Shown: positions 1 to 47,010, counted from the first letter of the stretch. The stretch: DNA of 61,252 nt from Chiloscyllium plagiosum (GCF_004010195.1 NC_057726.1:68917155-68978406), one strand, 5' to 3'. Notes: generated from the sequence alone by a model not told the origin. Numbers and translations: made by a program.

Positions 1-58
1 ACCATCACCACGATCCCCAAAATCAAACGGAAGATGTTAATGGTGTGGAACCGGCCAG
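1..58 (-). CDS. Gene A transmembrane exon (truncated by window edge), activating-type TM with Arg: (A)GRFHTINIFRLILGIVVM...
   Basis: Acceptor ...tatccttcag ending at 59, then phase-1 exon CT GGC CGG TTC CAC ACC ATT AAC ATC TTC CGT TTG ATT TTG GGG ATC GTG GTG ATG. N-x-x-R precedes the hydrophobic run. A homologous exon occurs at 37298-37198. Confidence 0.85.
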
Positions 59-930
59 CTGAAGGATAGAGATTCAATGAGGAAATATAGAGAAACTATT
101 AGACGCAGAATGTTTGTGTGTATGTCTTTACATAAAGGGAGGGAGAACAACAGAGAGGGAACTGGAGACAACCAATGTGTTAGACACAGAACTGTGCGCT
201 TGAGAGTTTACTACAATGCAGCTGAGGGGTAGTACTAAAATGCCCAGAACCTTTCTCCATGAGTTCCGCGGAGTTTACACTGAACATTGTATACATCAGG
301 GAACCTCAAGAATATTCTCCCCTTGGTCTTTTATTGGATCTGGTCTCTGACACTGCTAAACGGGAGCTAAAGCTAATTCTCATCCTCGCGTTAATTTCTA
401 ATGCAGTGCTCGATGGTAACAATACCCAGTCAACGGAAAAGAGGAAGCTGGCATTTACATAGCGCCGTTCAGGCCCCTTGAAAGCCAATGAGCTACTCGA
501 AGTGTGCTCGCCGCTGTAATAAAGAAAATGTGACGACCATTTTGTATACGATTTCCCAAAAAGCAATGTGAGAGTGAGCAGATCATTTGATTCTGTCGTG
601 TGGATTGGCAGGATAAATATTCGCTTAGGACTGATTTATTATCATTAGGGATGGAACCGCGTGTCAGACAGGGGAACTGGGTATTGATCTGCTAATCCCG
701 AACATGGCGCGGATTGAATGCAGTTTGTGGTCATTTTAAGCTGACGGCTAAGCAATACTTTAAAATATTGGCGTCAAGTTTGATTTCGGCTGGAGTCCCG
801 AGTGTGCGGGAATGAATCGGACCCTTGTATTTTTAATGTTGAAGATTAGTGTAGACAGAAATCCCGTCGCTGGTTCCAGTATATAACAAAGATCGTGATT
901 AAATCAATACTGAAGACCCGTCGCCCTTAC

Positions 931-1212
931 CGTGGTTTGGAACCGTGTAGCTGATATTTGCCGGGACGCCGAGTGCGACGTGAGAAACCTGGCAGGTATA
1001 GACTGAGCCCCTCTCCGGAAGACTGAGCTCGCTGGAAACTTGAAATAAACCCTCTTCGTTTAGGATTTTCCTGATGCTGATGCCAGACGTGATTTCGGAG
1101 AAATTTTTATACCACACGAGTTCAAACTGCCCCGGGAAGAAGCCAGCTGTTGTGCAGAGGAGAGCGAGGAAGGGCGAGTCGAGGCGGGTTATCTTCAGCG
1201 GGGTTGGTGGCA
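931..1212 (-). CDS. Gene A Ig C1-set domain exon
   Basis: 282 nt, ttccag| acceptor and G|gtaagg donor, phase 1/1. Translation VPPTPLKI...LLCTTAGFFPGQFELVWYKN...GLFQVSSELSL...VYTCQVSHVAL has C1-set hallmarks (Cys-x3-GFFP, W, YTCxVxH). Confidence 0.93.
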
Positions 1213-1879
1213 CTGGAACACAATAACATTCAATAAATCAATATCGGAAGTTGTGTGTGGGTTGGACAGAAGACAGAACAGCCTGTCAAAAGGCACAGGC
1301 ATTTCTTGAATTTTGGAGGGAATTCTTTTTTTTAAATCAACCTATTAATGCTAACAACTAAAGTTTCAATTTTGAAAGTTAGAATCGATGTACGTTCGTT
1401 AAACCTCCCCGTCCTTTGCATTCGGATAAAAAGTGGAGATAAATAGAGTGGACCATGTCAGAATGGGCAGCCGCTGATAATGTTGGACGAGACACATACT
1501 CTACACACGCAGCTCGGAGTCTGCATTGGATTAACAGTGGTCAAATCAGACAAAGTCAGAGTCCATACTAAAAAAAAGCGGTTTCATCAGACACCCTCGG
1601 TCTGTTGTCCTTTGAACAATCACTGGTTCAATCGGACACAGGCAATCCAGAGTCTATTAAATGCTTACTTCTTTTCCACGAGACATTCTCAATCCATAGT
1701 TTGTATTGAATTCTAATTGGTCCCATCTAAGTCTCAAACCCAAGTCCAAGTCCAATGAGATGCTCCGCAGAGACGGGACTTTCTCAGGGACACTATCCAT
1801 GGCACTGCACACAAGGCCGTTGAGAAGAAACAGGGAAGACACAAGACTGGTTGGAAGCGAGCTCAAGTAATCTCACCGC

Positions 1880-2520
1880 TGTCAAGGAGGCAAAACGTGT
1901 TGCGCCACTCCACCCAGGCAACACTTTCTGCACTAAGGACACCAAGACACAAGTGTAATGTGCACCCATAATGTTGCAAAGAAAGGAGTTTCAGGATTTT
2001 GATCCAGAGACACTATAATAGGAATGGTGTTATATTTACAAGTCAGGGTGGTGACAGGCTTGGAAGGGAAGTTGTATATGGTCGTGTTGCCATCTATCTG
2101 CTGCTGTGGGGTTTGAAGGTGCTGTCGACGAATATTGGGTGAATTCCTTTACTGCGTCTTGGAGAAGGCACACACTGATGTGACCGGACATGTTCATATG
2201 TAAAACGAAATCCAGGATTGTCACAGAGCGGTCATGGAGGGAATGGTGATGCATGTGGTGCCAACGAAATAGGCTGCATTGCCTGAATGCATTGTCAAGC
2301 TTCTTGGGTGTTGGTGCAGCTACATTTAATTCGGCAAATGGCTCGTCTTCGATCATATTGTCGACATGTGCTTGATAAATGGTGGATAGGATTTGGGGAG
2401 TCAGGAGGTGGATCACACATTGTTGGATTCCTGGCCTTCCATTTGCACTTGTAGATATTGTATTTGCATGGTTAGTCCAGTTCAGGGCCTCGGCAACCCC
2501 CAGGATGATAATGTCTTGTA
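1880..2520 (-). mobile_element. Old degenerate LINE remnant in the gene A V-C1 intron
   Basis: Minus-strand ORF 2036-2416 has decayed RT C-terminal-like text (IYQAHV..NMIE..P.A..NVAAPT..KKLD). Boundaries approximate. Confidence 0.45.
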
Positions 2521-2845
2521 AAATAAATGAAAAGGCATTTTTCTCGGAAATATTTCGCTGGAGTTGTAAGCAGTCTTTCAGCTATAAACGATAGCTAACT
2601 AAGTCAGCTATTAGCAATGTCATCGGCTAAATTCCAAGTAGAAGTTCAACGATTAGAGATTTTCACAAAATGCTTCCCTTGACTGTTAAAGTTATATGCG
2701 AAATGAATTTGCACTTTTTTTTCCTTTACTGAGAATTAAAAACCCTATATCCTTCAGTTGATTATTTCTAATGAACTTGTCCTTGAAACTATTTGGTCCA
2801 TCTTCTTCTCAATCATTAGTTCCCGATTGACACTCAAACACGCTC

Positions 2846-3993
2846 ATAGAGATGTACATCATGGGAAAAGACCCTTCGGTCCAACTCGTACATGCCGATC
2901 AGATATCATAACCTAATCTAGTCCCATTTATCAGAAGTTGGCCCATATCCATTCAAACCCTTCCTATTCAATTACACATCCAAATGATTTTTAAATGCTG
3001 TAATTGTCCCAGCCTCCACCACTTCCTCTGGCAGCTCATTCCATACACGTACCACTCTCTGCGTGAAAAAGTTGCCCCGTAGGTCCCGTGAAAATGTTTC
3101 CCCCTCACCCTAAATCTATGCCCTCTAGTTCTGTACTCTCCCATCCCAGAGAACAGACCTTGTCTATCTATCCTATCCATGCGCCTCATGATTTTATAAA
3201 TCTCGATAAGGTCACCCATCAGCCTCCAACACTCCGGGGAAAACAACACTATTCAGCCTCTCCCTGTAGATCAAATGCTCCAACCCTGGCGACAGCCTTG
3301 TAAAGTTTCTGAACTCCGTCAAGTATCCCGGCATCATTCTGAGAGGAGGGAGACCAGAACTGCACACACTATTCCAAAAGTGACCTTACCAATGTTCTGT
3401 ACAGCCACAATATAACCTCCCAACTCTTATAGTCAATGCACTGACCAATAAAGGAAAACATACCAAAGAACTTGTTCACTATCCTGTCTACTTGCGACTC
3501 CACTTTCAACTAACTATGAAACTCCACTCCAAGATCTCTTTGATCGTCAACACTCCGTGCATAAGTCCAACCCTGATTTGCCTTTCCAAAATGCAGAACC
3601 TCGCATTTATGTAAATTAAACTCCTTCTGTCACTCCTCAGCCCATTGACCCATCTGATCAATATCTCGTTGTTCTCTGAGTTAATCTTCTTCACTGACCA
3701 CTACGCCTTCAATTTTGGTGCCATCTGCAAACTTACTAACGAGACCACCTATGTTCACATCCAAATCATTTATATAAGTGACAAAAGTCAGTGGGCCCAG
3801 CACCGATCCTTGTGGCACACCATTGGTCACAGGCCTACAGTCTGAAAGGCAAACCTGCACGATCACCCTCTGTCTTCTATCTTCAAGGTGGTTCTGTATC
3901 CAAATGGCTAGTTCTTGCCGAATTCCGTGCGATCTTGCTAACCCGTCTACCCTGAGGAACCTTGTCGAACGCTTTACTGAAGTCCATGGAGAT
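2846..3993 (-). mobile_element. CR1/HER1-type LINE, 5'-truncated
   Basis: Minus-strand fragments MDFSKAFDKVP, GVPQGSVLGP, SKFADGTKI, GDLIEIYKIMR, RTRGHRFRVRG, followed by a typical 3' UTR. Confidence 0.9.
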
Positions 3994-5218
3994 CCTTTGG
4001 AAAAATATGTTGGCTTCCCAGCCGCGAACGCTTTGTTCACGCAATGTGAATTGAAACAACAGGCGATCTTTGCACACACTTCTCAGGATTGCGTTTAATC
4101 ATTTTCCCATCGAATCTTTGCTCCATGCTTCAAAACCACATTTTCAATTAACAATATCCTGTTGCAATCCCACTCAACATCGGGTATGGATGATGCCATT
4201 ATCCACTTCAAAGGTAGAGTTCCTTTACATTTGAAGTTGGTGCGCAGACTTGAGAAAGTGCCTCCAGCACCCAGCCATGCTTCAGGAACAAAAAAACTGC
4301 AGACTCCAAATATATTTCCATTATTCTACCTTAATGTACGTAGACTGATTGCACCAAGCTAACGAGGTAAAGTGCTCAGAGAATTTTACCCTGCTTCATA
4401 AAATCAGGACTTAAGGGGAGACTCAGTCTATGAGGAATGTAAATAATTACCAAACGTTACAAGTAAAATTGGGGATTAAGAAAAATAAATTTAATCTCCA
4501 AGTACTCAGTAAACATCTCATCAAAATCATACTTGGAAGCAGCGCAAGTACATTTCTCGTTATAATGTCATTTTAGAAGCAGACCAAATAACACTCTCTA
4601 CTTCTCAGTTAAATGTTGAGAGCACTTAAAAGTATTCAAGTATCCAATCCGTTAGCGTGAGGAAGCACAACATTTCTGAGACACCATTTAATAATTCGTT
4701 CTCCGGTAGCATACATTTGAATGTTTTCCTAAAGCCCGTTCTTCTTTTGGAGGATAATTATTTAACTCTCGGTTTAATTACTCATACCGTGCTGTAGCTG
4801 CATCCGTTTATGATCACTTGCACCTATTTGATAATCGATTTTGAGAACCTGACATTTACCTCTTTAAAAGAAAAACACATCTTTCCACGTTGAACTCCAT
4901 GACAAATCCAATGCATTGCATTTCCGATGGCTACCTAAATCAAGTGGTGCATAATTTAGGATACATTATCTGCTTTTAAATAGTCGATATAAAACAAGAT
5001 TAAATACATTACACGGCCTGGCTAACTTTGATTGACCGCGGACGGCAAGTCTGATGTACACCAGCACAAGTTCGGTCTAAGTGTCCTTGAACTGAAAAAA
5101 AAACCAAGCCCGCCTTTCGACACCAAACTATTAGCAGACTCCTTGCTGCTCTTGTGATCTATTATCGAGGTATACCTGCCTAATTTAACGTTGTTCATTT
5201 CTCCTCAGTGACACTCAC

Positions 5219-5539
5219 CGTGTACGATAAGCTTAGTCCCATTCCCATTGAAAGTCTTCCTGCCGAAGACGCTGATGCTACAGTAATAGATTCCGGAGTC
5301 CCGGAAGCTCACATTCAACAGATGGAACTCAGCAGATGCTTGCTTGAACGGTAACATTATTTTCCTTTCGTCTGCTGTTGGGTCCAAAGTTTTGGTCTGC
5401 CCGTCTTTCCGCCAAGAGACATCCACCGATAATTTGCGATCGAAAAGCGGGATGGAGCAATACATTGACACATTTGCACCTTCCACTGCAGTCAGGCACG
5501 CAGGGATTTGCGTCACAGGCAAAGGGGTTTTGCCAGTAT
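5219..5539 (-). CDS. Gene A Ig V-set exon with germline-joined J-like segment
   Basis: 321 nt, tttctggtag| acceptor and G|gtgagt donor, phase 1/1. Translation DTGKTPLPVTQIP...EGANVSMYC...VSWRK...DSGIYYC...NGNGTKLIVH shows C, W, DxGxYYC and a GxGTxLxV G-strand. Confidence 0.93.
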
Positions 5540-5732
5540 CTACCAGAAATATACACAAACATTAGTTGGTCATGTTTCATGTCCTGAAAAAGGAAAAGAG
5601 GTAAAATAATGGGTAAGAAATTTAACGAAAGAAAATCAAATAATTAATCATGAAAACGACGCTGCCTGTTTTGAGTTCCCGGTATTTCCATTCATATTCC
5701 TATCCGCTAGGTGAGTGACAATATTTATAGAC

Positions 5733-5787
5733 CTGTATAAATGATTCCCAGGGCTGAGAGATAGCACATCATATGGAACACAGGCAT
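5733..5787 (-). CDS. Gene A leader (signal peptide) exon MPVFHMMCYLSALGIIYT
   Basis: ATG at 5787, 55 nt, phase-1 donor ACAG|gtct, 193-bp intron to V. Same length, position and YLS..GIIY motif as the paralogous leader at 47010-46956. Confidence 0.82.
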
Positions 5788-6800
5788 CTTGGGCAGGGAA
5801 GATCTCGAGCAGGAAGACAGCAACAGCCAGCGAAAATCGGTGGAAAAAGTGTAACCATCTGGGACTCCCTGGTGCATTCAGGCATCGACTCTGTGTCTGA
5901 GACAACCTCAATGAATTGGTTCTGTTTAAGGCGGATCGACGGAAGTAGGTGTTGCAAGATGAGGATGGCTCAGGTCTGATTGGTGACCAAGAGAATTTGA
6001 AATATTTTCGCATGACGTGAAAGGTTTCTAGTTGAGACAACACTTGTCTGAGTTCAGTGTTGTCCGACCTGTGGCAGTTGGGAGCGCGGTGGAGATCTGG
6101 CCCAGAGGTGGTGATCAAATAGAAATGCATGCCCTGATCTTACAGTTGGACCGGATGCCATGTCCTTGAATGACTTTGTTGAGGGAAAACAGGGAGAAAG
6201 GAGTGGTCAATGGTCAATGGTTTGTGTTTATGGCCCAGTAGAGCCACGTAGGTGCAGTAAAACCACCCAGTCCGGGAGAATCTGATACAATGACTAGATA
6301 AGGTGGATGAAAATGAATGGAGCCTATCGATTTCAACTGCACAGTTGAGGGCAGGTGGAGATGAAAGATGTGATGGTATTCTCTGTTAAAATCCCGAAGA
6401 GGTGATGGGAGCCGACTTGGAAGGGATTCAATGGTCAACAGAACATTTGTGAATTTCTTTATTTTGATTTATTCAAATTTCAAAGTTTATTCTTGATTTA
6501 TTCAAACTCACTTCTGATTAATGAAGTTTCAGCATAAAATTGTTGCAAACATGCTCATAGTTTTGGAAAGTGCGAAGAATATTGCATTCAGAGATACTTC
6601 CAAGTAAGGAGGAGTCAATGAACAGGCTCTGAGATAAGTTTTGAATGTTGAACAAGGGAGTTGTGTTTGGGGTGAAGACGTCACTGAGGATGATATAATA
6701 TAAATCAAATTGGTTGGAGGAATGAAAGTTGAATAATGAGTTATTTGTGATTATTAAGGTTGAAAGAGCAGGAAAAAAAAGGGTGGAATGATTTTGGAAA

Positions 6801-7092
6801 GACCATGTGAGCTGGGAGAGGTAAAGGCAGGAAAGAATCCAGTGACAAATCCAAACAGGAGAAACACTGAGGACGCTGCAGGATATGTTTGAATTTCTTT
6901 CCCAGAGGACACAAGTATGCAAGATTTTGCATATTTTTGACAACAAGACCATGTGAGCTGGGAGAGGTAAAGGCAGGAAAGAATCCAGTGACAAATCCAA
7001 ACGGGAGAAACACTGAGGACGCTGCAGTATATGTTTGAATTTCTTTCCCAGAGGACACAAGTATGCAAGATTTTGCATATTTTTGACAACAA
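6801..7092. repeat. Tandem duplication, 2 x 146 bp
   Basis: gaccatgtgagctggg...tttttgacaacaa at 6801-6946 and again at 6947-7092, two substitutions. Confidence 0.95.
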
Positions 7093-7593
7093 CAACTATA
7101 CCAGCCTTTCTTCTCCAATTTGTTTTTCAGATTAAACTTCAGTTTCACCATCTGTCGTGGTGTAGGTGAACATGCGTGATTGCTAACCCCATGACACACC
7201 ATTATGGCACTTGCGCCAAATCTTACATGCAAAACGTTTAAATTAAATGCAGCAGATTTATTCAAACTCATAACTGATACTGTTCACCTCCTTCTGTTCG
7301 ACACCTGTTTGATTTAACCAAGCTATGCCAACGGTAAAAGCCGCGTGAAAGCCACTTTACTAATGAATGCAAAAAAAAGTTGGAATTGAAAGACTGATAT
7401 GATGTTCTTGTAACACGGTGATTGTTATTTTCAAAAAAACATTTCTTTACGTACAAACTCCAGTACAGCCCCAATTTTTTTCCTTTTTTTAAAATCATGT
7501 TCACAAATCTGCATGACTTGACTACGCCTTGGTATGTTCTCTATCGCCACAGAGGCGCTTTCAGTATTAATTATTAAGGGCACTCTTCTACTA

Positions 7594-7897
7594 GTGGCAC
7601 AGTGGTTAGTACTGCTGCCTCACAGCGCCTGAGACCCGGGTTCAATTCCCGCCTCAGGCGACTGACTGTGTGGAGTTTGCACATTCTCCCCGTGTCTGCG
7701 TGGGTTTCCTCCGGGTGCTCCGGTTTCCTCCCATAATCCAAAGATGTGCAGGTCAGGTGAATTGACCATGTTAAATTGCCCGTAGTGTAAGGTAAGGGGT
7801 AAATGTAGGGGTCTGGGTGGGTTGCGCTTCGGCGGGTCGGCGTGGACTTGTTGGGCCGAAGGGCCTGTTTCCACACTGTAATGTAATCTAATCTAAT
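7594..7897 (+). mobile_element. HE1-like tRNA-derived V-SINE, young copy
   Basis: A box tggcacagtgg, B box ggttcaattcc, V-domain tgtgtggagtttgcacattctccccgtgtctgcgtggg, tail ...ctaatctaat. Confidence 0.92.
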
Positions 7898-8539
7898 ATT
7901 TACCCTACCTTTTTGAAAACCTTTTAACACGGTAGCATTGGTTACCAGCGCTGATTGGTTGTTCTGTCTCAGCAATGTTATATACTCCAACTCAAGTTGG
8001 CTCAGGTATTTATTACATCATTCTTGATCTGTTGTAGTTTAAAGAATGACGAGCAATACTGTCCATGAAGAACGATTGATACTCATTCTGGAACCTCTGG
8101 TGATGGGATTACATCATCAGTTCAGATGTGGCCATGTTAGGAATATATGGCTCTGGGTGATCCATGCCTCAATGTAAGGTGATGAGATCGGATGTTGCAC
8201 ATACAGGGTGATGACGTTTTTTTTCTGTATGTAGAGATGGTGGCTTACGTGGATGAATGTACAGTGCAACACTCAAAATGTGGATTGTAGTGTGATGGGA
8301 AGTCATTTCCAAAATTTTATGTTCAGTTGTGTTATAAATAAATGATCCCCCTTTTTTGATGCCACAATTCTGCGACTGGCTGGTAGGGCGATGACGTCCA
8401 CTTCAGGATGAGCGCAGTCTGGAGGCGACCAGGGCAGGGATATAGAGTGATGAGTCTATTCTTTGCCATGAGCAGTGATGCTGGATCCATATCAGCACTC
8501 GAGGCTGCTGGAGTAAATTTCATGAAGACAAGGCGACAT

Positions 8540-10660
8540 GCTGCTCTCTGTAACTGACTCCCGTGATATGTGCTACATGAATGATTTTATTTGCAGATTT
8601 TGCCCATTTCAAATTGAGTTCAACAATTACCTTCAGCAAACCATGGAGTGGAGAATCAGCGATGGTAATGCATTGAATTTCAAAGGCCAGTTGTTAGATT
8701 CTATCTTATTGGAGATGGTCATTTTCCAGTAGTTGAGTGGCGGATTTGTTACTTGCCAGTAGTCAGGCCAGGACTGGATGCCATCAATATTTTGTTACAT
8801 TTGGACGTGGACTGATTCAGTATCTGAGAAATGGTCGGTGGAGCTGAACTTTGCACAAACATCAGCAGTTATTCATTATTCTGACATCAGGATGAGGGAA
8901 AGATGACTGACTCCTGATCAGCTTCACGATCTTTCATTGTGTGAGGTAAGACTTCAATGAGCAGGGAGCTTTCACCTCGTTTCTAATTGGGTTTATTTTA
9001 CTGGGACTCCTTACAATGGCTCAGTGCTGACCTTCTCCCAAGAGTAGTTACTTTCACCCCCTCTCTGGACTTTAGCTTTTTCTGTGTTTGAAAGGAAGGC
9101 TGTAATGAGGGCAGGATCTGTGTGGCCCTGGCGGAGCCTAAAGTGGGCGTCACTGAGCAGTTTATCAGTGAGCAAGCGCTACTTCACTGTTGATGATATC
9201 TTCCAACACTTTATTGGTGAAGGGCTGGTGACATGGAAAGTTATTTCAAATGGTTTGTAAAGGTTTGTAATACCTTTTGCGTGCATGGGCATACCGCAGA
9301 TGCTTTCCCACATTTTCACAAAGATACCAGTGTTCCAGTCGTCGGGGATCAGTTTGGCTTAGGTTGGGACAACGTCTCATTAGATTAGATTAGATTCCCT
9401 ACAGTGTGGAAAGAGGCCCTTCGACCCAACCAGTCCTCACCGACCCTCTGAAGAGTAACCCACCCAGACCCATTCACACTCTGACTAATGCACCTAACAC
9501 TATGGTCAATTTAGCATGGCCAATTCACCTGACTTGCACATCGTTGGACTGTGGGAGGAGACCGGAGCACCCGGAGGAAATCCACACAGACACAGGGAGA
9601 ATGTGCAAACTCCACACAGTCAGTCGCCCGAGGCTGGAATCGAACCTGGGACCCTGGTGCTGTGAGAACACAACTCTTCAGTATTATTGCCGGAAAGGTG
9701 TCAGGTCCCATAGTCTTTGTAGGACCTAGTCCATTGAAACGTTTCTTGACATCACATCGAGTGATATTTTAGTTGGCATTTACGATGCTGGGAAGTACTT
9801 GAGGATATCAAGATGGTTCATCGACATGTTCCTTTTTCTGAAGATTGTTATATATTGCTAAGCCTTTTCTTTTTCGCGGATTTACTGTGCTTCCTATTCA
9901 TTGAGTTTGGGGTGTTTGTGGAGCTTCCACCACCAATTACTTGGTTAATATCAACCATTATTTATGACTGGTGGTGACAGGATTGCAGAGCTTGATGTGA
10001 TGCCTTTGTTGTGGAGTCCTCTCTTCGAATTGATGTGTATGCTGCCTGACATGCAATTTGCCCTGTTTTGTAGCTTTGTCATGTTTTTATCCCATATTTA
10101 GGTATTCCTGGTGCTGCTCTTGGCATTTCTTCCTGCATATTCTTTGAAACTGCGTTTGATTCCCTGGCTTGATAGTGTTGATAGAGTGGCGAATATGCTG
10201 TGCCATACCTTGCAGATTGGTATGAATATAATTCGATTGTTGTCGATGGCCCACAACACCTCATGGACACCGTGCTTTCAGTTATTATACCTGTTCCAAA
10301 TCTACCTCATTTAGTACGATTGTGGTTCCACACGACACGACGGTGTGGATGCTCACTCAAAGACGTGACTTCATATTCTCCAGAACAGTCAGTGGTCACT
10401 CGTATGGATACAGTTATGGTCAGATGTATCTGCGACCGTCAGGTTGTTGAAGCTGAGGACAGTTTTGTTCCCTCTTTTTTGGCCCACTGCCTTCGCAAAC
10501 GCCAGTTAACCACCTTTTGTACTTGGCCAGCCTGGATAGTACTTGGACTGCCGACCCCTCATGATAATAGACATTGAATTTACTCGCCCAAGGTACACCC
10601 AGCACTCTTGACCCAGTCACTGCTTTCTCCAAGTGCTCATCAACAGGGATTCTTGTTGAC
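8540..10660 (-). mobile_element. Degenerate LINE remnants, interrupted by a SINE
   Basis: Decayed endonuclease/RT-like text on the minus strand (e.g. VLGVPWASKFNVYYHEG..., LVFVKMWESI-like). No intact ORF; family and ends uncertain. Confidence 0.4.
9379..9667 (-). mobile_element. HE1-like V-SINE
   Basis: Reverse complement of the SINE at 7594, with an attagattagattag tail. Confidence 0.9.
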
Positions 10661-11137: not shown

Positions 11138-11637
11138 NNNNNNNNNNNNNNNNNNNNNNNNNNNNNNNNNNNNNNNNNNNNNNNNNNNNNNNNNNNNNNN
11201 NNNNNNNNNNNNNNNNNNNNNNNNNNNNNNNNNNNNNNNNNNNNNNNNNNNNNNNNNNNNNNNNNNNNNNNNNNNNNNNNNNNNNNNNNNNNNNNNNNNN
11301 NNNNNNNNNNNNNNNNNNNNNNNNNNNNNNNNNNNNNNNNNNNNNNNNNNNNNNNNNNNNNNNNNNNNNNNNNNNNNNNNNNNNNNNNNNNNNNNNNNNN
11401 NNNNNNNNNNNNNNNNNNNNNNNNNNNNNNNNNNNNNNNNNNNNNNNNNNNNNNNNNNNNNNNNNNNNNNNNNNNNNNNNNNNNNNNNNNNNNNNNNNNN
11501 NNNNNNNNNNNNNNNNNNNNNNNNNNNNNNNNNNNNNNNNNNNNNNNNNNNNNNNNNNNNNNNNNNNNNNNNNNNNNNNNNNNNNNNNNNNNNNNNNNNN
11601 NNNNNNNNNNNNNNNNNNNNNNNNNNNNNNNNNNNNN
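11138..11637. other. Assembly gap (500 N, placeholder size)
   Basis: Run of exactly 500 N. Confidence 1.
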
Positions 11638-12772
11638 ACGGCAGCAGACACATGGCAATATGACCACCTACAACTTCCCTACCAAACCTTTCACCATCCC
11701 GATTTTGAAATGTATCACCATTCCCATAATAGTGTCACTGGGTCAAAATTCTGAAACTCCTTTCTTTGCAACATTACTGGTGCAGGTATACCTCCGTGGG
11801 TTGCCGTGGTTCAAGAAGACAGCTTACTACCATCTTCGCAAGGGCAATTGGAAATAGGAAATAGAATATTGAATCGATAGAAACGCCAACATTGCATGTA
11901 CACTTTTCCTTGAAAAAAGTTAGCTATTTGGCGTCTTTTGAGGGGCGGGGTGGAGCAAACAAAGGAATTCTTGAATTTAGGATGCGATTTTTTTATTGCA
12001 GTTTTTAACAGATGCGGGTGGAGGTTGGATTCATCTCAAATGCAAACGTATCTTCGGACAGATGGGTAGAGGGTCAAATTCCAAGCTCAATAATCAAAAC
12101 GAGATAAAAAAAAAAAGAATGGGAGTGAAAAATAAATTGGATTAAGCTTGTATTTGTGATAGTGTCACGCTAGTGATAGAAACTGAACGCCCCGTTTTTA
12201 TCTATCTTCAATCGTCGTTCATTGCGACCAAAATACAAAGACACGACCAGTCCTGGACTTGAGATTGAGGCTTTTGATGAGACCAGTTATAATTAAATGC
12301 AAACTGTGGATTGAGAATGTCTGGTGGATCCATTAAGTAGATTCTGGATTCCTGGTATCCAATTGAACCAGTGATTGTTCAATGAACAATAAACTGAGGG
12401 TGTTTGGTGGAACTGGTGATTATTTAGTATGGACACTGACTAACTGTGACCACTGTTTATTCAATACAGATTCTGAGCTGCGTGTGCAGAGCACGTGCCT
12501 CGTCCAACATTTTGTCTGTTTTGTGCAGGGATTTGTCCACTCCATTTATCTCCACTTTCTATCTGAATAAAAAAGAAGGAGCTGTTTAACAAGCAAACAT
12601 CGATTTCAAGTTTCAGAATTGGAACTTTATTTGTTCACATGAATAGGGTGATTCGAAAAACATTCCCTCCAAAATTCAGAAGACGTCTATGCCTTTTGAC
12701 AGGCTGTTTTGTCTTCTGTCCAACCCACGCACAACTTCCGATATTGATTTATTGAATGTTATTGTGTTCCAG

Positions 12773-13054
12773 TGCCGCCAACCCCGCTGAAGATAACCCG
12801 CCAGTACTCGCCCTTCCTCGCTCTCCTCTGCACAACAGCTGGCTTCTTCCCGGGGCAGCTTGAACTCATGTGGTATAAAAATTTCTCCGAAATCACGTCT
12901 GGCATCAACATCAGGAAAATCCTGAACGAAGAGGGTTTATTTCAAGTTTCCAGCGAGCTCAGTCTTCCGGAGAGGGAGTCAGTCTATACCTGCCAGGTTT
13001 CTCACGTCGCACTCAGCGTCCCGGCAAACATCAGCGACAAAATTCCGAATCACG
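12773..13054 (+). CDS. Gene B Ig C1-set domain exon (inverted paralog of 931-1212)
   Basis: 282 nt, ttccag| and G|gtaagg, open frame VPPTPLKITRQYSPFLALLCTTAGFFPG...YTCQVSHVALSVPANISDKIPNH; 18 differences from the gene A C1 exon. Confidence 0.92.
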
Positions 13055-13192
13055 GTAAGGGTCACCGGTGTTCCATTTTTGATATACAGAGGACCCTAAC
13101 ATCTGTCATCATTATTAAAATACAAGGGTCCAATCCGTTCCCGGATGGTTGGCGCTTCAGCCAAAGTTAAATACAGATTTGAAGTGTTATGA

Positions 13193-13324
13193 TTCCTGTT
13201 GAAGAGCTTTTGCCCGAAACGTCGATTTTCCTGCTCCTCGGATGCTGCCTGACCTGCTGTGCTTTTCCTGCACCACTCTAATCGAGACTCTGGTTTTCAG
13301 CGTCTGCAGTCCTTGTTTTTACCC
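13193..13324 (+). mobile_element. Short Penelope-like-element (PLE) terminal-repeat insertion
   Basis: ...gcccgaaacgtcgattttcctgctcctcggatgctgcctgacctgctgtgc... flanked by the 10-bp direct repeat agtgttatga (13183-13192, 13325-13334). Absent from the paralogous gene A intron. Confidence 0.75.
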
Positions 13325-14828
13325 AGTGTTATGAAGCCGTCAGTTCAAAATTGACCACAGACAGCAACCGGCCTGCATTGCATCTGCACTGTGTCCGGGA
13401 ACCAGCATATCTATGGCCAGTTTCCTCGTCTGATGCGAGGAATCATCCACAAAACTGATGCTAAACACTTTCTTGCTCTCGCGCTCAGTCTGTCTTTCTC
13501 TCTCTCTTTCTCTCTCTCCAATTCACTCTTGGTCTTATTGGAAAAATCAAAATTATTCTTTCTCTCTATATTCACCTCCCACTTTCTTGTCCTCCTTATC
13601 TCCGTCACCGTAATGCGTCCAACATCTGGCGCCACTCGCTCTCCATTCACTTCCTGGTGATTCCGTGTTTACTGCCTTGGTACGCACCTCAGTTGGTCTG
13701 GTCGCTCATTTCTGTTTTTGAAGGCCGTAGGATCAATTCCCCTTTCGATCCCACCCATAATGGTTTGACCCCGCAGTGCCGAGGCAGTATTGCACAGTTG
13801 AAGGTGATGTCTTTCTGGGGCTAAAGTGGGTACTGTAGATGCTGGAGATTAGAGACAAGATTAAAGTGGTGCTGGAAATACACAGCAGATCAGGCAGCAT
13901 CCGAGGAGGAGGAAAATCTGCTTGAACCGATTGTCCCTTCACACAGGAGCAAAAGATCCAGCACGCCATTTTGCAGAACAGCAAGTAAGCCCTGCGTGAA
14001 TACTTATCCCCCGAAATCCACATCACAGAATCAGATGGTCTGATCACTATCACATTGGCCTTTCAAAAACAGTGTTCATAATGGATGCTACAATACATAT
14101 GTTACAACAGCGACTCTACTGCAAAGAAATAGAAATGGATAACAAATGCTACCTCAGCCACCGATACCCACATCCCATGAGCCAATAGTAAAAACCGATG
14201 CATTCATCCAGTCTTTTGGCACAAATTCCTTCGGCAAGATTCCACTTGGCAGACTTGTTAGTAAAATTAGATCACATGGGATTCAGGGAGAGCTGGACAA
14301 TTGGATACAAAATTGGTTTGACGGGAGGAGACAGGGTGGTGGTAGAAAGTTGCTTTTTGGACTCGAGTCTTGTGACCAGTGGTGTCCCGCATGGATCAGG
14401 GCTGCGTCCAGTGCTTGTTATTTATCTAAATGGTTGGGATAAGAATATAGGAAGCATGGTTAATAAATGATGGGCACAGGGTCAATTCTTCGGCCTGCTT
14501 GAATGACGTGTGGAACGAGGAAGAGATCTTTACACCTGGTAAATACACACTAATTCGCGGAGGGAAAACAAACAATGCTTTATATTCATTAAGTCAAATA
14601 CGGTCATTAATCTGAACACGTGCTGGTGCTTTCGAAATGGATAGGCGCATTTTTGGTTCAATTAGTTGGTCGATACAGGGACAACGGAGCCTCGCGTTCG
14701 GTGATAAGCAGCAGGAATGTGGCAGAGACGGGTTTAATGTAAGTGTAGTCTGTTACCTGGAGTTGTCGAATACGTTGTATCATCTGCTTTTAAAAATGCT
14801 AACATTCCACTTTCTCTGTCCCCTATAG

Positions 14829-14942
14829 GTAACCAAGACCGTACTTTCTCTTACGCCTTAGTCTTTGGTTGTGCTGCAGGCGGGATTATGATTTTAGTTC
14901 TGGGAATTGTCTTAAAGGGGTGCAAATCAGACAGAACAACTG
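14829..14942 (+). CDS. Gene B transmembrane exon, copy 1 (uncharged TM): GNQDRTFSYALVFGCAAGGIMILVLGIVLKGCKSDRTT
   Basis: 114 nt, ccctatag| acceptor, G|gtgaga donor, phase 1/1 matching C1. Hydrophobic span followed by basic residues. Confidence 0.85.
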
Positions 14943-15212
14943 GTGAGATGTGAACTTTTCCTGATTCTGTCCTGGGCTTTCACCTCTTGTTACATTTCAC
15001 TGCTGCAGTAGGAGAGACAGGGGACGGGCAGTCTGGAATGAAATTTTCAAGAGCAGTGCGCATAATGTGCCGCTCATCTCATACAGAGAAACAGCAGAAT
15101 ATTAGCGTTCGGCGAGCCTGCTCACTTTGTTTCAATGGTGGTTAATTTCTTGCGGACATGTGGTACATTGTGAAAATGATCATGTGTGTAATGCCATTCG
15201 ATTCTCTGACAG

Positions 15213-15256
15213 GCAACGCGATTGCTGAGGACATGAACAGCCAATTTGAGGAACAG
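15213..15256 (+). CDS. Gene B first cytoplasmic exon, copy 1: GNAIAEDMNSQFEEQ
   Basis: 44 nt, tctctgacag| acceptor, CAG|gtcagt donor, phase 1/0. Confidence 0.7.
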
Positions 15257-16667
15257 GTCAGTTTCTATTTATGACAATGAGAACGAAACTGTGAGTGGGA
15301 CACTTTCTTGCTCTCGCGCTCAGCCTGTCTTTCTCACTCTCTTTCTCTCTCTCCAATTCACTCTTGGTCTTATTGGAAAAATCAAAGTTATTCTTTCTCT
15401 CTATATTCACCTCCCACTTTCTTGTCCTCCTTATCTCCGTCACCGTAATGCGTCCAACATCTGGCGCCACTCGCTCTCCATTCACTTCCTGGGGATTCCG
15501 TGGTTACTGCCTTGGTACGCACCTCAGTTGGTCTGGTCGCTCATTTCTGTTTTTGAAGGCCGTAGGATCAATTCCCCTTCCGATCCCACGCACAATGGTT
15601 TGACAGAGCCCCGCAGTGCCGAGGCAGAATTGCTGAGTTGAAGGTCCGGTCTTTCTGGGGCTAAAGTGGGTACTATAGATGCTGGAGATTAGAGTCAAGA
15701 TTAAAGTGGTGCTGGAAATACACAGCAGGTCAGGCAGCATCCGAGGAGGAGGAAAATCTGCTTGAACCAATTGTCCCTTCACGCAGGAGCAAAAGATCCA
15801 GCACGCCATTTTGCAGAACAGCAAGTAAGCCCTGCGTGAATACTTCTCCCCCGAAATCCAGATCACAGAATCAGATGGTCTGATCACTATCACATTGGAC
15901 TTTCAAAAACAGTGTTCATAATGGATGCTACAATACATCTGTTACAACAGCGACTCTACTGCAAAGAAATAGAAATAGACAACAAATGCTGCCTCAGCCA
16001 CCGATACCCACATCCCATGAGCCAATAGTAAAAACCGATGCATTCATCCAATCTTTTGGCACATGTTCCTTCGGCAAGATTCCGCTTGGTAGATTTGTTA
16101 GTAAAATTAGATCACGTGGGATTCAGGGAGAGCTGGACAATTGGATACAAAATTGATTTGACGGGGGGAGTCAGGGTGGTGGTAGAAAGTTGATTTTCGG
16201 ACTCGAGTCTTGTGACCAGTGGTGTCCCACATGGATCAGGGTTGGGTCCAGTGCTTGTTATTTATCTAAATGATTAGGATAAGAATATAGGAAGCATGGT
16301 TAGTAAATAATGGGCACAGGGTCAATTCTTTAGCCTGCTTGAATGACGTGTGGAACGAGGAAGAGATCTTTACACCTGGTAAATACGCGCTAATTGGCAG
16401 AGGGATTATAAACAATGCTGTATATTCATTAAGTCAAATACGGTCATTAATCTGAATACATGCTGGTGTTTTTGAAATGGATAGGCGCTTTGTGGTTCAA
16501 TTAGTTGGTCGGTACAGGAACAACGGAGCCCTACGTTCGGTGATAAGCAGCAGGAATGTGGCAGAGACGGATTTAATGTAAGTGTAGTCTGTTACCTGGA
16601 GTTGTCGAATACGTTGTATCATCTGCTTTTAAAAATGCTAACATTCCACTTTCTCTGTCCCCTATAG

Positions 16668-16781
16668 GTAACCAAGACCGCACTTTCTCCTACGCCTTAG
16701 TCTTTGGTTGTGCTGCAGGCGGGATTATGATTTTAGTTCTGGGAATTGTCTTCAAGAGGTGCAAATTAGACAGAACAACTG
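16668..16781 (+). CDS. Gene B transmembrane exon, copy 2: GNQDRTFSYALVFGCAAGGIMILVLGIVFKRCKLDRTT
   Basis: Same splice sites as copy 1, 5 substitutions. Confidence 0.85.
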
Positions 16782-17051
16782 GTGAGATGTGATTTTTTCC
16801 TGATTCTGTACTGGGCTTTCACCTCTTGTTACATTTCACTGCTGCAGTAGGAGAGAAAGGGGACGGGCAGTCTGGAATGAAATTTTCAAGAGCAGTGCGC
16901 ATAATGTGCAGCTCATCTCATACAGAGAAACAGCAGAATATTAGCGTTCGGCGAGCCTGCTCACTTTGTTTCAATGGTGGTTAATTTCTTGCGGACATGT
17001 GGTACATTGTGAAAATGATCATGTGTGTAATGCCATTTGATTCTCTGACAG

Positions 17052-17095
17052 GCAACGCGATTGCTGAGGACATGAACAGCCAATTTGAGGAACAG
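17052..17095 (+). CDS. Gene B first cytoplasmic exon, copy 2
   Basis: Identical to 15213-15256; its phase-0 end fits the next exon. Confidence 0.72.
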
Positions 17096-17784
17096 GTCAG
17101 TTTCTATTTATGACAATGAGAACGAAACTGTGAGTGGGATGTTGTCTACATACGGGTAATTTATATCCATACTCCAGGAATCTCAGACGTACTCCTTCGA
17201 CCGCGCGCATATCGAGTTCACGGTGTCCCCAGTGCATCACTGTAATATGAACACGAGACAGTGATTCATTGGGACAATGATGTCGAGTCCAGTCGAGACG
17301 GCAGTTCTCTAAGACAGTTTTAAATGTTTGCGTTTTGTTCGGATCAGTTGGCCTGCTCTTCAGTCAGGAGCAGAGGCACAGCTCGATTTGTGATTGCCCA
17401 TTATTCCCATCCCCAAATCTCTGACCGTGTTTGTGAGAGTTGACTGCCCTGGGCGGGATTCCGACCTGCTCCTGGCTTTAGACTCCGAGCAAAGATAGGG
17501 ATAATCTGAAAACAGCAAACTCAGAACTTACGCTACCTATTCAGCATTGCGTGCGCCAGTTCGAGTCCAAACGGTCAGAATAATTTATCTTAACTTCGGT
17601 TGTGAATGAATGTTCCAATGAACGGGTGGGAAGCAAGAGCTGCAGTCCTTACCATGGCTGCATCATCGGTGTTATTTACAACTCTAACCTGCACGAACTG
17701 ACCACAACCAATCTGTTATGCTATTGACTGCAACATTTTTTTTAAACTTGGTGGCTAATATTTCTGCAAAACAATATTTCTCAG

Positions 17785-17907
17785 ATCAATCGGGACAGAG
17801 AAGCAGTGAGTCCGATTTATGCTGCTCTCCACTTCAGCGGAGAGATGAAACCTGCAAAACTGCGAACGGAGCAAGAGAGCTTCGTGTATGCGCAGGTACT
17901 GTCATGA
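17785..17907 (+). CDS. Gene B cytoplasmic exon with two tyrosine motifs: INRDREAVSPIYAALHFSGEMKPAKLRTEQESFVYAQVLS*
   Basis: tttctcag| acceptor, phase 0 continuing from cyt1, TGA at 17905-17907. ITIM-like IYAAL and VYAQV. Paralog at 22641. Confidence 0.8.
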   Translation: MNRDREAVSPIYAALHFSGEMKPAKLRTEQESFVYAQVLS

Positions 17908-18489: not shown

Positions 18490-19131
18490 NNNNNNNNNNN
18501 NNNNNNNNNNNNNNNNNNNNNNNNNNNNNNNNNNNNNNNNNNNNNNNNNNNNNNNNNNNNNNNNNNNNNNNNNNNNNNNNNNNNNNNNNNNNNNNNNNNN
18601 NNNNNNNNNNNNNNNNNNNNNNNNNNNNNNNNNNNNNNNNNNNNNNNNNNNNNNNNNNNNNNNNNNNNNNNNNNNNNNNNNNNNNNNNNNNNNNNNNNNN
18701 NNNNNNNNNNNNNNNNNNNNNNNNNNNNNNNNNNNNNNNNNNNNNNNNNNNNNNNNNNNNNNNNNNNNNNNNNNNNNNNNNNNNNNNNNNNNNNNNNNNN
18801 NNNNNNNNNNNNNNNNNNNNNNNNNNNNNNNNNNNNNNNNNNNNNNNNNNNNNNNNNNNNNNNNNNNNNNNNNNNNNNNNNNNNNNNNNNNNNNNNNNNN
18901 NNNNNNNNNNNNNNNNNNNNNNNNNNNNNNNNNNNNNNNNNNNNNNNNNNNNNNNNNNNNNNNNNNNNNNNNNNNNNNNNNNNNNNNNNNNNNNNNNNNN
19001 NNNNNNNNNNNNNNNNNNNNNNNNNNNNNNNNNNNNNNNNNNNNNNNNNNNNNNNNNNNNNNNNNNNNNNNNNNNNNNNNNNNNNNNNNNNNNNNNNNNN
19101 NNNNNNNNNNNNNNNNNNNNNNNNNNNNNNN
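18490..19131. other. Assembly gap (642 N)
   Basis: Run of N; hides the acceptor of the following exon. Confidence 1.
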
Positions 19132-19235
19132 ATCTCACCGCTTCCGAGGAAACTGCAGGAAAACCGAAGGAAAAGCAGGCGGAGTATGCAGAGGTCAAAA
19201 TAAACCAGGGAAGCGGAAACTCCTGGATTCCATGA
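19132..19235 (+). CDS. Gene B second tyrosine-motif terminal exon, 3' part: ..NLTASEETAGKPKEKQAEYAEVKINQGSGNSWIP*
   Basis: Open frame to TGA 19233-19235 with AEYAEV. Colinear with the complete paralogous exon 22882-23032. 5' end lies in the gap. Confidence 0.7.
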
Positions 19236-21478: not shown

Positions 21479-22640
21479 CCAGGGCAATGATAGAGAACAT
21501 TCCGAAAGGCAGTCAAATCGTGTGAACATGATTAACAAGACAGGGAATAATTTCAGGCTGCGGCGGAAGTTGTATGCAGGTCACTAGATATTATAAAGTG
21601 ATGTTTTCTCTGAAACAACCAACAGTGCGACAAGATCATCATCCCAGCTTTTGTGCATAGATCAGAGCAGTGGTTTTCACGGGAAGTTTAATGTTCGCAT
21701 AGCTTAGGATAAGCAGACAGATGTATTAGCAGAAGGTAATGAGCAGCATCAGTTGTTAGTTTTAATAAAGCTGGTGAATTTAAATTCAACGTTTTGCTTG
21801 CATTCCTTCAGCCTTTGCACTGAGCGTTAACGCTGTTCAAAAATGTCTTAATGGCAAGTCATGGCGCTAGTAACTATGCTGCTGCATTCGTGTTGGTAGG
21901 AAATAGGTTCAATTTACATCACAACTGATACTGAAACTGAAGTTAAATATGCATTTCAAATAGAAAGGCTGCTGTAGTGGTGGTATTCTAACCGCTGTTG
22001 ACTGTCTTAAATAAAATAAAAAATTGTGTTCACTAATATACTCTGAGAAAGTAACTCTGCCATCCTGCTTTGATCTATTTCCTCTTCAATCCCAGTTTCC
22101 AGTCTGCATTTGTCATTGTTTTTTTCTCCTATCTTTACCTGAGAGGCAGCAGTGCGAACCCCTGAGCCACCGTGCTGCCCTCTGGGACACAGTTTTGAGT
22201 GTTTGCGTGTTGTCAATGGTAGTCAACCACAAGCACAGGCGCAGCTCGATTCTGTGCTTCTGTAATATTCTCATCCTCAAATCTCTGAGCGAACTCTGAG
22301 TGTTGGCTGGCGCTACTTCTGAGGGAGATTCCGACCCCCTCCTAATGCCACACTGTCAGTTGAAAGTTGCGTCATCTGAAACAAGGAAACGCAGAACATG
22401 CCTTAACTAGCGCATGCGCCTGCTCGAATTCCAATCGCCCAGGATAATTTTGGTGAATTTGGGTAGTAAATGAATATTTCCGTGAACGGGTCGGAATAAG
22501 AGCTGCTGTGCTTGCCACTGGTGATCACACAGCCCTGATATGCTCTTTCTGATCACCCCCCAACATGTAATACTATTGTGTTTAAAGTACATTTTTTCAA
22601 ACTTCACCCATGGCGAAAGTTTCTGCAAACTTCTGCCGAG

Positions 22641-22758
22641 ATCAAACGCGACAGAGGCAGTGAATTCGATTTATGCTGCTCTCAACTTCAGCGAACCGAG
22701 AAAAACCGGGAAACCGTTAATGGAAGAAGAGAGAGTTGTCTCTGCAATTGAAAATTAA
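22641..22758 (+). pseudogene. Relic C: degenerate first ITIM exon (..EAVNSIYAALNFSEPRK..)
   Basis: Homologous to 17785-17907. Weak ccgag acceptor, 2-nt deletion relative to gene B, second Tyr codon is TCT. No upstream V/C1/TM exons. Confidence 0.75.
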
Positions 22759-22881
22759 CAGTCGGTTCCAACCCGGACCAGTCTAACATAAATCCGATCT
22801 CAGTAATGTACACCGACAACCTGAATGGCTTTATTAAACAGAGTAAGAAGACTTCCTCATATTTCATTGTTTCTCACGCAG

Positions 22882-23032
22882 GCAAAGCACCCGGACAGTT
22901 GGTGAACTGACGTATGCCTCTTTGAATCTCACCACTTTCGAGCAAAGGGCAAGACGAAAACAGTGGAAGGAGCAGGCGGAGTATGCAGAAGTCAAGATGT
23001 GCAAGGGAAGCGGAAACCCCTGGATTCCATGA
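22882..23032 (+). pseudogene. Relic C: second ITIM exon QSTRTVGELTYASLNLTTFEQRARRKQWKEQAEYAEVKMCKGSGNPWIP*
   Basis: ttgtttctcacgcag| acceptor; canonical ITIM LTYASL plus AEYAEV; homologous to 19132-19235. Confidence 0.75.
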
Positions 23033-37197: not shown

Positions 37198-37298
37198 TCA
37201 GATATTTCCATTTTCTGTATCAAAGATCCACACAAGAATCACTACCGACCCCAACAGCAAACGGAAAAGATTGTTGGTGTTAAAGCGCTTAATAGAAT
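37198..37298 (-). pseudogene. Gene D transmembrane exon, activating type: DSIKRFNTNNLFRLLLGSVVILVWIFDTENGNI*
   Basis: Clear homology to the gene A TM (RFHTINIFRLILGIVV vs RFNTNNLFRLLLGSVV). Weak ccaagag acceptor; short tail ending in TGA. Confidence 0.75.
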
Positions 37299-40200: not shown

Positions 40201-40440
40201 TAAATCATATGAGTAATCTGGCAATCTAACTATGATTAATACTCATCAGAATATTCAATGTATCTATCCATGCAATTCATCAAAGAACTCTTGGCACAGC
40301 AGTGGGTACAGTTACGCTGTTCTGACATATGGTGTTAAGACATTTCACTTGCATGATATTGAAGTTTAAAAAGAGACACATAAATAGACAAAAATAAGCA
40401 TGGAACAGTTCAATGGCTTGTTGAGATTTGAGATACTTAC

Positions 40441-40715
40441 CTTGAAGCAGATCTGCGCAATTATTGCTGGCTGGGGCCTCAAGTGATACATGAGAAACTT
40501 GGCATGTATAAGTTGACCAGCTATCCATTTGAAGCTGGCAACTTCAAATAAACCCTTCCCCTTTCGTCTTTTCATAGTGTTCATTCCAGATGTAATCTCT
40601 GTGTCATTTTTATATCAAGTGAGGTTGAAGTCTTCAGGCAAGAAGCCAGCTGTTTTGCAGAGGAACGTGAGGGTTGGAGAGGGTAGCCGAGTAATTGTCA
40701 CTGGAGTCGGTGGCA
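40441..40715 (-). pseudogene. Gene D C1-set exon, disabled
   Basis: Splice sites intact (ttcttag|, G|gtaagt), but the invariant Trp is TGA (40617-40615; LT*YKN) and the length is 275 nt (net -7, frameshift before STYTCQVSHVSL). Confidence 0.9.
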
Positions 40716-44935: not shown

Positions 44936-44941
44936 TTAAAC

Positions 44942-46955: not shown

Positions 46956-47010
46956 ATGAGTAAATAATGCCTGACACTGACAGGTACCAGAGTACAGCAG
47001 ATGCAGACAT
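46956..47010 (-). pseudogene. Gene D leader exon MSASAVLWYLSVSGIIYS
   Basis: 55 nt, phase-1 donor T|gtaggc, 197 bp from V; homologous to the gene A leader. Confidence 0.75.

Follow-up and report, generated by a model that had tools for sequence, protein, structure and literature searches.

A germline VJ-C1 receptor gene of Chiloscyllium plagiosum, probably the activating partner of its head-to-head sister

We propose that gene A, which lies on the minus strand at the start of a 61,252-nucleotide stretch of Chiloscyllium plagiosum DNA (the window), codes for a surface receptor of VJ-C1 type that does not rearrange and whose membrane helix bears an arginine. It probably forms a pair with an inhibitory-type sister gene that lies head-to-head with it, gene A being the activating member, and it would signal through an ITAM dimer of the FcR-gamma/CD3-zeta type. 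As in paired receptors, the two linked genes have near-identical ectodomains, and one has an Arg transmembrane (TM) segment while the other has a neutral TM and tyrosine exons.

Gene A begins with a leader exon (5787-5733, 55 nt) that is open from its ATG and ends in a phase-1 GT donor common to two paralogues; the same exon is spliced in P0001, the model of a paralogue. Next come a germline-joined VJ exon (5539-5219, 321 nt; Pfam V-set, E = 3.7e-9), a C1-set exon with the two invariant cysteines (1212-931, 282 nt; Pfam C1-set, E = 3.6e-11), and the 5' part of an Arg-type TM exon (58-1), in which the Asn codon is at 38-36 and the Arg codon at 29-27. AG acceptors and GT donors flank all of these exons, and splicing them, in phases 1-1-1, gives an open frame with five N-glycosylation sequons (precursor residues 41, 94, 118, 162, and 211). 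(In the database model of gene A, P0002, the leader is missing, as is the start of V.) The exon frames, the splice sites, and the Pfam matches thus bear out the original prediction of an open VJ-C1 gene that has five sequons and in which N-x-x-R sits where the TM begins on the outer side. To call the ectodomain that of an antigen receptor was an overstatement: we found no consensus RSS heptamer or nonamer in positions 1-7000, V and J form a single exon, the J-like strand has Asn at the position of the antigen-receptor Phe/Trp, and germline-joined VJ domains are described for CD79, NITR, SIRP, CD8, NKp30, and PRARP (PMC11599192, available in part).

Reading on into the adjacent sequence, as had been suggested, completes the helix. 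The TM exon continues for 34 bases past the window, for a total of 92 nt, and ends with a phase-0 GT donor. The best hydrophobic 19-mer is at residues 228-246 (mean hydropathy of 2.61), with Asn227 and Arg230 at its outer edge, so that Arg comes third in the 19-mer. Asp247, 17 residues after the Arg, closes the TM, and the helix contains no Lys. The exon at 58 does appear to be joined to C1: the 872-nt intron between them has two strong acceptors, and a TM-length frame arises only from the exon at 58. Gene models of three sharks make the same join (P0002, P0014, and, in Heptranchias perlo, P0004/P0005). The join is more than chance, as the TM of the H. perlo homologue is identical at 17 of 29 residues and keeps the N-x-x-R. 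Searches with this TM returned only irrelevant designed proteins from the PDB and, from its own genome, only the exon itself (one candidate each).

The claim that gene A is intact holds for the leader, V, C1, and TM, which are open and spliceable, with the qualification that we did not find a cytoplasmic exon. A scan for acceptors and comparisons with the DNA downstream of gene B (a broken paralogue, described below) and of the L025 gene gave repeat-like matches only. The database model places a tail exon of 31 amino acids 22.3 kb downstream, for which we found no homologue. Neither candidate tail (a 65-amino-acid read-through frame or the 31-amino-acid model exon) carries an ITIM, an ITSM, or YxxL/I. 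Together with the Arg TM and the adjoining twin, with its neutral TM and tyrosine-bearing tail, the ITIM-less candidate tails support the activating-type architecture that had been predicted.

The Arg-type TM is not confined to gene A. After isoforms were merged, 14 stored protein records represent nine distinct genes of this class, from seven shark species. Arg is kept in 8 of the 9, and an Asp or Glu follows 17 residues later in 8 of 9, although the latter count is partly circular because 8 of the 9 genes were picked by that acidic motif. The Asn of N-x-x-R is found in only three of the nine intact genes; N-x-x-R is present in gene A, gene B, P0014, and P0004. All of the modelled tails in the class are 54 amino acids or shorter, and three of the Arg-class models (P0026, P0033, and P0064) have a loose ITIM-like match in their short tails.

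One possibility is that the Arg does no more than mark the edge of the membrane and that the gene A protein, having no tail and sending no signal, serves as a competitor or ligand that takes up the ligand of its inhibitory twin. This would fit with the Arg being only the third residue of the hydrophobic stretch, with the Asn being missing from six of the nine genes, and with the Gln that stands in place of the Arg in both P0043 and the L025 gene while the rest of the TM class is kept. Also, the predicted fold is similar to those of V-C proteins of the ligand type, B7-H6 among them (Z = 14.9, rmsd of 4.6 over 190 aligned residues), but B7-H6 is tied with many others. We consider this explanation unlikely because of the conservation of the Arg across the seven species at a fixed spacing to the acidic residue, and because the same motif position is described as functional in Xenopus and mammals, in the parts of the literature available to us.

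The activating reading is favored by known systems. An N-x-x-R motif combined with an acidic residue at the C-terminal end is the described FcR-gamma-coupling type (PMC6557307), and NxxR TMs help the XFL receptors of Xenopus to associate with FcR-gamma (PMC2413239). The NxxR receptors (LILRA, NKp46, Fc-alpha-R, GPVI, OSCAR, as well as TARM1, plus Xenopus XFL and SLAM) resemble gene A in having the motif at the outer edge and the acidic residue at the C-terminal end, and they resemble its class in having short tails and activating genes intermixed with inhibitory ones with a neutral TM (PMC6557307, PMC2413239, PMC4536121; all extracts). In Xenopus, the TM1 exon is described as including the tail, whereas the TM of gene A is followed by a conserved GT donor that may be in use.

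A second possibility is an activating receptor that works through a different adaptor (DAP10 or DAP12, for instance). Both NKG2D and zebrafish Nitr9 pair an Arg TM with these adaptors. Gene A matches the LRC consensus only in part, and we found a single zeta-family TM in the assembly. This exon, with Cys and Asp, is in the same genome (G000:C12:49.77 Mb) and was assigned to neither FCER1G nor CD247. We nevertheless think that a different adaptor is quite unlikely, as the N-x-x-R with its acidic partner is of the FcR-gamma-coupling type. Coupling of gene A to FcR-gamma/CD3-zeta is likely.

The sister gene is on the plus strand. Its C1 exon (12773-13054) is 89% identical to the C1 of gene A in amino acids and 93.6% in nucleotides. 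A neutral TM exon, with no charged residue in the helix and a phase-1 end, is present twice (14829-14942 and 16668-16781) and so is the first cytoplasmic exon (15213-15256 and 17052-17095), which matches the tail of P0010/P0011; the second TM copy is inside a 1.84-kb tandem duplication with 95.5% identity. A cytoplasmic exon with two tyrosine motifs (17785-17895) is 89% identical to the inhibitory tail of H. ocellatum (P0010), and the 3' part of the terminal exon (19134-19235) has a distal tyrosine motif. The 5' part of the terminal exon, which in P0010 holds an ITIM, is covered by a gap (18490-19131). Another gap (an N run at 11138-11637) probably hides the leader and V of the sister and might be filled by the unplaced contigs L006 or L007. 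L006, which has a leader, V, C1, and a neutral TM, matches 11741-14988 with 94.5% identity. Because the V of the sister falls in the gap, our comparisons of V use unplaced contigs.

Gene A shares a block of DNA (900-9926; upstream DNA, leader, V, parts of the introns, and C1) with the inverted sister and with L006 and L007, in patches of mostly 77-97% identity. This sharing ends some 30 bases beyond the donor of C1. As gene A has its ectodomain DNA, but not its TM exon, in common with the twin, it is a mosaic, as the original prediction had it. That prediction also called the TM LRC-type, and this part is supported only partly: NxxR TMs are described on Xenopus FCRL and SLAM receptors as well (PMC6557307, PMC2413239; extracts), the D-Y-T that starts the LRC consensus is absent before the N-x-x-R in gene A and P0004, and the Asn is not family-wide. 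Gene A also differs from LRC receptors in having VJ-C1 instead of C2-type domains.

The pattern of identity points to conversion of the ectodomain onto a fixed activating TM exon. The V exon of gene A is 96.3% identical in nucleotides to that of the inhibitory-type paralogue L006 (92% in amino acids), with two synonymous changes at 74 sites, and identity is patchy: 85.6% in the V-C1 intron as against 96.3% in the V exon, and 80.7% in the distal intron as against 93.6% in C1. Within a species, Arg-type and inhibitory genes are similar, their C1 domains being 86% identical in C. plagiosum, 96% in H. ocellatum, and 91% in H. perlo and their V domains 91% in C. plagiosum and 88% in H. perlo, while bamboo-shark and H. 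perlo sequences are only 61-66% (V) and 53-60% (C1) identical to each other. A single clade of Arg-class V domains was rejected (p-AU = 1.5e-12, 8 of 65 rows), in a quick tree and with a test that was chosen after we had seen the within-species identities; the C1 tree is a quick tree as well. Thus, in three sharks, the ectodomains group by species and not by TM class, while the Arg TM is conserved, and this combination is what suggests conversion.

A third possibility is that gene A is a duplicate gone silent or in decay, its frame still kept open by recent conversion from its sister. Gene B, a paralogue of the same N-x-x-R TM class on the minus strand (37231-47010; leader at about 47010, V at 46750-46445, C1 at 40715-40441, and TM at about 37290-37231), is broken by one stop and one frameshift in its C1. 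That we did not find a tail exon, that the database model has no leader, and that 1.3 kb downstream of gene A there is a tandem repeat some 6 kb long would also fit with decay, as would a dN/dS near or above 1 relative to L006 (few changes). We found no RNA support either: in what was read of five RNA runs, no exon-exon joint of gene A appeared and the single-cell reads (2-6% of each run was read) fell on repeats only, so these runs are uninformative about expression. Contigs guessed from RNA over C1 have the sister-type letter at 9 of 9 positions, and we found no RNA that covers gene A. However, the TM exon, which is without a counterpart in the sister, is intact and is conserved in models from H. 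ocellatum and H. perlo. Also, the splice sites are all canonical, and dN/dS relative to an older paralogue, L009, is 0.18/0.65. We regard decay as distinctly improbable.

Relatives of gene A are found in sharks, rays, and chimaera (Callorhinchus), with database models that include P0002, P0001, P0004, P0009, and P0031. These models have automatic best-hit names only, many of them SIRP-alpha-like, and we did not find a description of the family in the literature that we searched, although other papers may cover it. Most of the family V matches (35 of 41) are on the contig of gene A, C17. (We also noticed five classical-cadherin matches on C17, which presumably suggest a chromosome like human 16q.) As to linkage with the LRC markers TTYH1/RPS9, Tweety matches (paralogues taken together) are on C21 and C24, with none on C17.

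Fourth, gene A could be a shark relative of NKp30 (NCR3) that gained or kept a C1 domain. NKp30 accounts for the top four PDB sequence matches of the V exon (E = 7e-6 to 1e-5), and it joins a germline VJ domain to an Arg TM that is described as coupling to CD3-zeta/FcR-gamma (PMC6514059, in part). But TCR V-alpha is nearly as good a match (E = 3e-5), NKp30 is not among the best 60 matches of the family V profile, and NKp30 has a single V domain, with no C1 between V and TM and no inhibitory twins. Furthermore, NCR3 is described as MHC-linked (PMC12227049, in part), whereas MHC class I matches are on C37 (29 of 50) and small contigs and none on C17, and no database relative that we looked up is named NCR3. 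We view this relationship as very improbable. The precedent of NKp30 and the context of paired receptors had both been missed in the original prediction.

Other families share parts of this design. SIRP has two C1 domains, its activating member has a mid-membrane Lys, and it is linked to NSFL1C. Like the gene A family, SIRP combines a J-like V with C1 and has inhibitory forms (a tail with 4-5 Tyr) and activating forms; gene A differs in its one C1, its outer Arg, and its lack of a helix Lys, and SEP-domain (NSFL1C-type) matches are on C20 and C4 only, with none on C17 (4 matches of 7 candidates). In searches of the PDB with the family profile, SIRP-alpha (2wng) was the best match outside of antibody-type chains and UrIg2 (E = 2e-31, spanning V and C1). 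Structure did not discriminate among families: the best matches of the predicted fold of P0001 (pLDDT of 90) were light chains and a large number of V-C proteins with tied scores, and an Atlas search gave generic V/C1 clusters. The NITRs of ray-finned fish are likewise described as clustered and species-specific, with a germline VJ and with ITIM or Arg-TM members (bioRxiv 2021.06.11.448072, in part), but their second domain is a six-cysteine I domain and not a two-cysteine C1. UrIg, UrIg2, PRARP, and Xenopus VJC1 have a single-exon VJ followed by C1, as gene A does (PMC12227049, PMC10751288; extracts), but UrIg and UrIg2 are described as having three or more C1 domains and as mapping to the MHC or to the Ig/TCR complex.

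We suggest that gene conversion keeps the ectodomains of gene A and its sister alike, so that both would see the same ligand. Arg230 would pair with the Asp of the adaptor, and the receptor's own tail would be short and non-signalling. The pair may strike a balance between recognizing self and countering pathogens that exploit binding to the inhibitory member. More tentatively, the Arg TM exon might be the ancient FcR-gamma-docking module of the LRC, FCRL, and SLAM receptors of tetrapods, predating the split between sharks and bony vertebrates, and might act as a fixed activating cassette that repeatedly receives copies of the antigen-receptor-like VJ-C1 ectodomains of inhibitory twins. In that case the cluster would be the system by which NK and myeloid cells of sharks tell self from altered self.

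Paired receptors with a movable Arg TM are a known design, and the family of gene A is apparently a large and unnamed set of such on/off pairs. The receptors that tune NK and myeloid cells in sharks are largely an open question, and this cluster of about 40 paired VJ-C1 receptors (in sharks, rays, and chimaera) offers a concrete candidate. A clean test pair is at hand in gene A and the inverted sister, with outsides that are alike, insides that are opposite, and a visible boundary of the shared DNA. In the sources available in part, the NxxR TM is described as far back as amphibians. If the Arg-dependent link to FcR-gamma is true, this coupling would reach back to cartilaginous fish and would also include an ectodomain of VJ-C1 type.

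Gene A is a real gene. As originally predicted, its exons form an open set on the minus strand: a leader exon of 55 nt (5787-5733), V and C1 exons of 321 nt (5539-5219) and 282 nt (1212-931), and a transmembrane (TM) exon that starts at 58 and continues 34 bases beyond the window (92 nt in all, ending in a phase-0 GT donor). The exons have GT-AG borders, their phases match across the joins, and the protein has five N-glycosylation sequons. Pfam confirmed both a V-set and a C1-set domain. The J-like strand lies within the V exon itself, and window 1-7000 contains neither a heptamer nor a nonamer of the RSS consensus. The proposed splicing of the exon at 58 to C1 is probably correct, as the same join is made in the database model P0002 (source label Chiloscyllium plagiosum, "uncharacterized"; identical to gene A across the region covered) and in models of homologues from Hemiscyllium ocellatum and Heptranchias perlo. 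Also, the C1-TM intron has two strong acceptors, and a TM-length frame opens only at that of the TM exon.

In five RNA sequencing runs, part of each of which was searched, no joints between gene A exons were seen. The sole RNA-guessed contigs found over C1 carry the sister gene's base at 9 of 9 positions. (Nearly all reads mapped to gene A fall on a CR1/LINE-like fragment in its V-C1 intron, window 2800-4100.)

Reading the adjacent sequence completed the TM exon, including Asp247, but a tail exon was not found in the downstream DNA. There are two candidate tails: the last exon of gene A's database model (31 amino acids, 22.3 kb distant, with no homologue found) and read-through past the TM exon (65 amino acids). 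Neither contains an ITIM, which fits the activating type originally proposed. An H. perlo model ends 4 residues past its TM exon. Downstream of the gene A TM exon by 1.3-7.4 kb is a degenerate tandem repeat of about 6 kb with a short unit (L001:2400-8500, in the downstream stretch), which encloses two copies of a retroelement fragment.

Arg230 is residue 3 of the best hydrophobic 19-mer in gene A, with Asn227 upstream and Asp247 at the end of the helix. An NxxR TM that begins with D-Y-T and has acidic residues at its C-terminal end has been defined for FcR-gamma-coupled LRC receptors, and Xenopus FCRL and SLAM receptors also use it (PMC6557307). In two other reports, the Xenopus NxxR form associates with FcR-gamma (PMC2413239) and Xenopus has 49-50 such exons (PMC4536121). 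Gene A shares the N-x-x-R and the acidic end but lacks the D-Y-T. Thus, the claim of an LRC-type TM stands as a resemblance to the NxxR module in working, and descent from that module is only a possibility.

The sister gene is on the plus strand, facing gene A, and its C1 (12773-13054) encodes a protein 89% identical to gene A's C1. Its V is probably located in an assembly gap (11138-11637). Its cytoplasmic exons match an ITIM-bearing tail from H. ocellatum, and its neutral TM is present twice: a 1.84-kb tandem duplication (13465-17139, 95.5% identity) doubles the TM and the first cytoplasmic exon. This duplication may be real, or two genes or haplotypes may have been collapsed into one; both TMs are joined in one chain in model P0011. 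The last two cytoplasmic exons of the sister recur in degenerate form at 22640-23032 (plus strand), where an acceptor is lost and a frameshift is present but the ITIM-like motif is retained. An unplaced contig (L006) carries a gene of this inhibitory type, whose V is 92% identical to gene A's.

The similarity of gene A to sister-type copies is patchy, runs from about 9900 across the leader, V, and C1, and ends about 30 bases beyond the C1 donor. Because nucleotide identity is higher in V (96.3%, with 2 synonymous changes at 74 sites) and C1 (93.6%) than in the intron interiors (85.6% and 80.7%), this pattern suggests conversion tracts over an older inverted duplication. Ectodomain trees are in line with this. 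Within each species, the Arg-type ectodomain pairs with an inhibitory one, in C. plagiosum, in H. ocellatum (96% identity in C1), and in H. perlo (88% in V and 91% in C1), while ectodomains of bamboo shark and H. perlo are 53-66% identical; the Arg TMs of gene A and H. perlo match at 17 of 29 positions. A single clade of Arg-class V domains was rejected (p-AU 1.5e-12; quick tree of 65 rows after removing 4 near-duplicates, with the test picked after the tree was inspected). Elsewhere in the cluster, L009-L010 versus L011-L012 and L017 (C17, the window's contig, 69.15-69.29 Mb) are more inverted near-duplicate family genes, with identical V in L010 and L017, which suggests that inverted duplication was repeated.

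In the genome, the V exon matched 41 of 74 candidates, of which 35 lie on the window's contig. For C1, 150 of 311 candidates were scored and at least 66 matched, at least 42 of them on that contig. Most of the matches lie within two clusters (61.5-62.3 and 68.9-70.7 Mb). In part of these clusters, TM profiles (built including gene A's own model; one weak 11-bit match excluded) matched 20 neutral-type exons and 3 exons of the class found in gene A, namely those of gene A itself, the broken gene B, and a gene with Gln for Arg (L025:4673-4580, minus strand, G000:C17 ~69.53 Mb). H. perlo model P0043 has the same replacement. These Gln forms are a natural control in adaptor tests. The V-C1 intron of gene B holds a 378-codon open frame for the end of a LINE reverse transcriptase (45037-46170, minus strand).

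Database models place relatives in sharks, rays, and Callorhinchus, under automatic names only (SIRP-alpha-like, tapasin-related-like, NCR3LG1-like, etc.; 30 of 150 listed representatives looked up). Among 103 stored records no longer than 560 and with a family C1 score of at least 85 bits, 14 are of gene A's class, 22 have no TM, and 67 have a TM of a different type, neutral in most cases and in many followed by an ITIM-like tail. The 14 records of gene A's class represent 9 genes: 8 have the Arg, 3 have the Asn, and 8 have an acidic residue at Arg+17, a count that partly reflects the original selection of 8 of the 9 by the acidic motif. Some neutral-class TM exons have an Arg near the outer end (L012:9604, L014:2628, L017:864, L042:1734, L043:1786, L044:3869, L046:5831, and L048:6225), as do short-tailed ray models P0032, P0038, P0041, and P0058; activating forms may thus have arisen by a second route as well. 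Models without C1 or a TM exon (P0101, P0090, P0065, and P0008) suggest that some inhibitory members have isoforms with V alone or with the TM skipped. Distant VJ-C1 proteins from turtles (P0124, P0138) and coelacanth (P0134), on long branches in the tree, have a TM that starts N-x-x-K.

Could this be a known family? SIRP-alpha is the top PDB match of the family profile once antibody-type chains and UrIg2 are set aside. SIRPs differ from the gene A family in domain number, TM residue, and the NSFL1C-type marker. With gene A's V as a single sequence, the best PDB match is NKp30 (E = 7e-6), barely ahead of TCR V-alpha. NKp30 does have an Arg TM (PMC6514059 and PMC12272517), but it has a single V domain and is MHC-linked, whereas gene A has V and C1, and 29 of 50 MHC class I matches are on contig C37 and none on C17. 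NITRs carry a six-cysteine I domain (bioRxiv 2021.06.11.448072; PMC6795676) instead of a C1-set domain. UrIg and UrIg2 have multiple C1 domains (PMC12227049; PMC10751288), unlike gene A's one, and map elsewhere. The joined-VJ families known to date are catalogued in PMC11599192. No published description of the VJ-C1 family was found in the literature searched, whose coverage fell short of several directly relevant papers, and we provisionally consider it unnamed.

Gene A is likely an activating receptor. Arg230 would dock on the Asp of an FcR-gamma or CD3-zeta dimer. The genome contains a zeta-family TM exon with the Cys and Asp, the sole match above the cut-off, which may belong to either FcR-gamma or CD3-zeta. 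We infer the cell type that would carry the receptor as well as the sharing of a ligand: gene A would balance an inhibitory twin that recognizes the same ligand.
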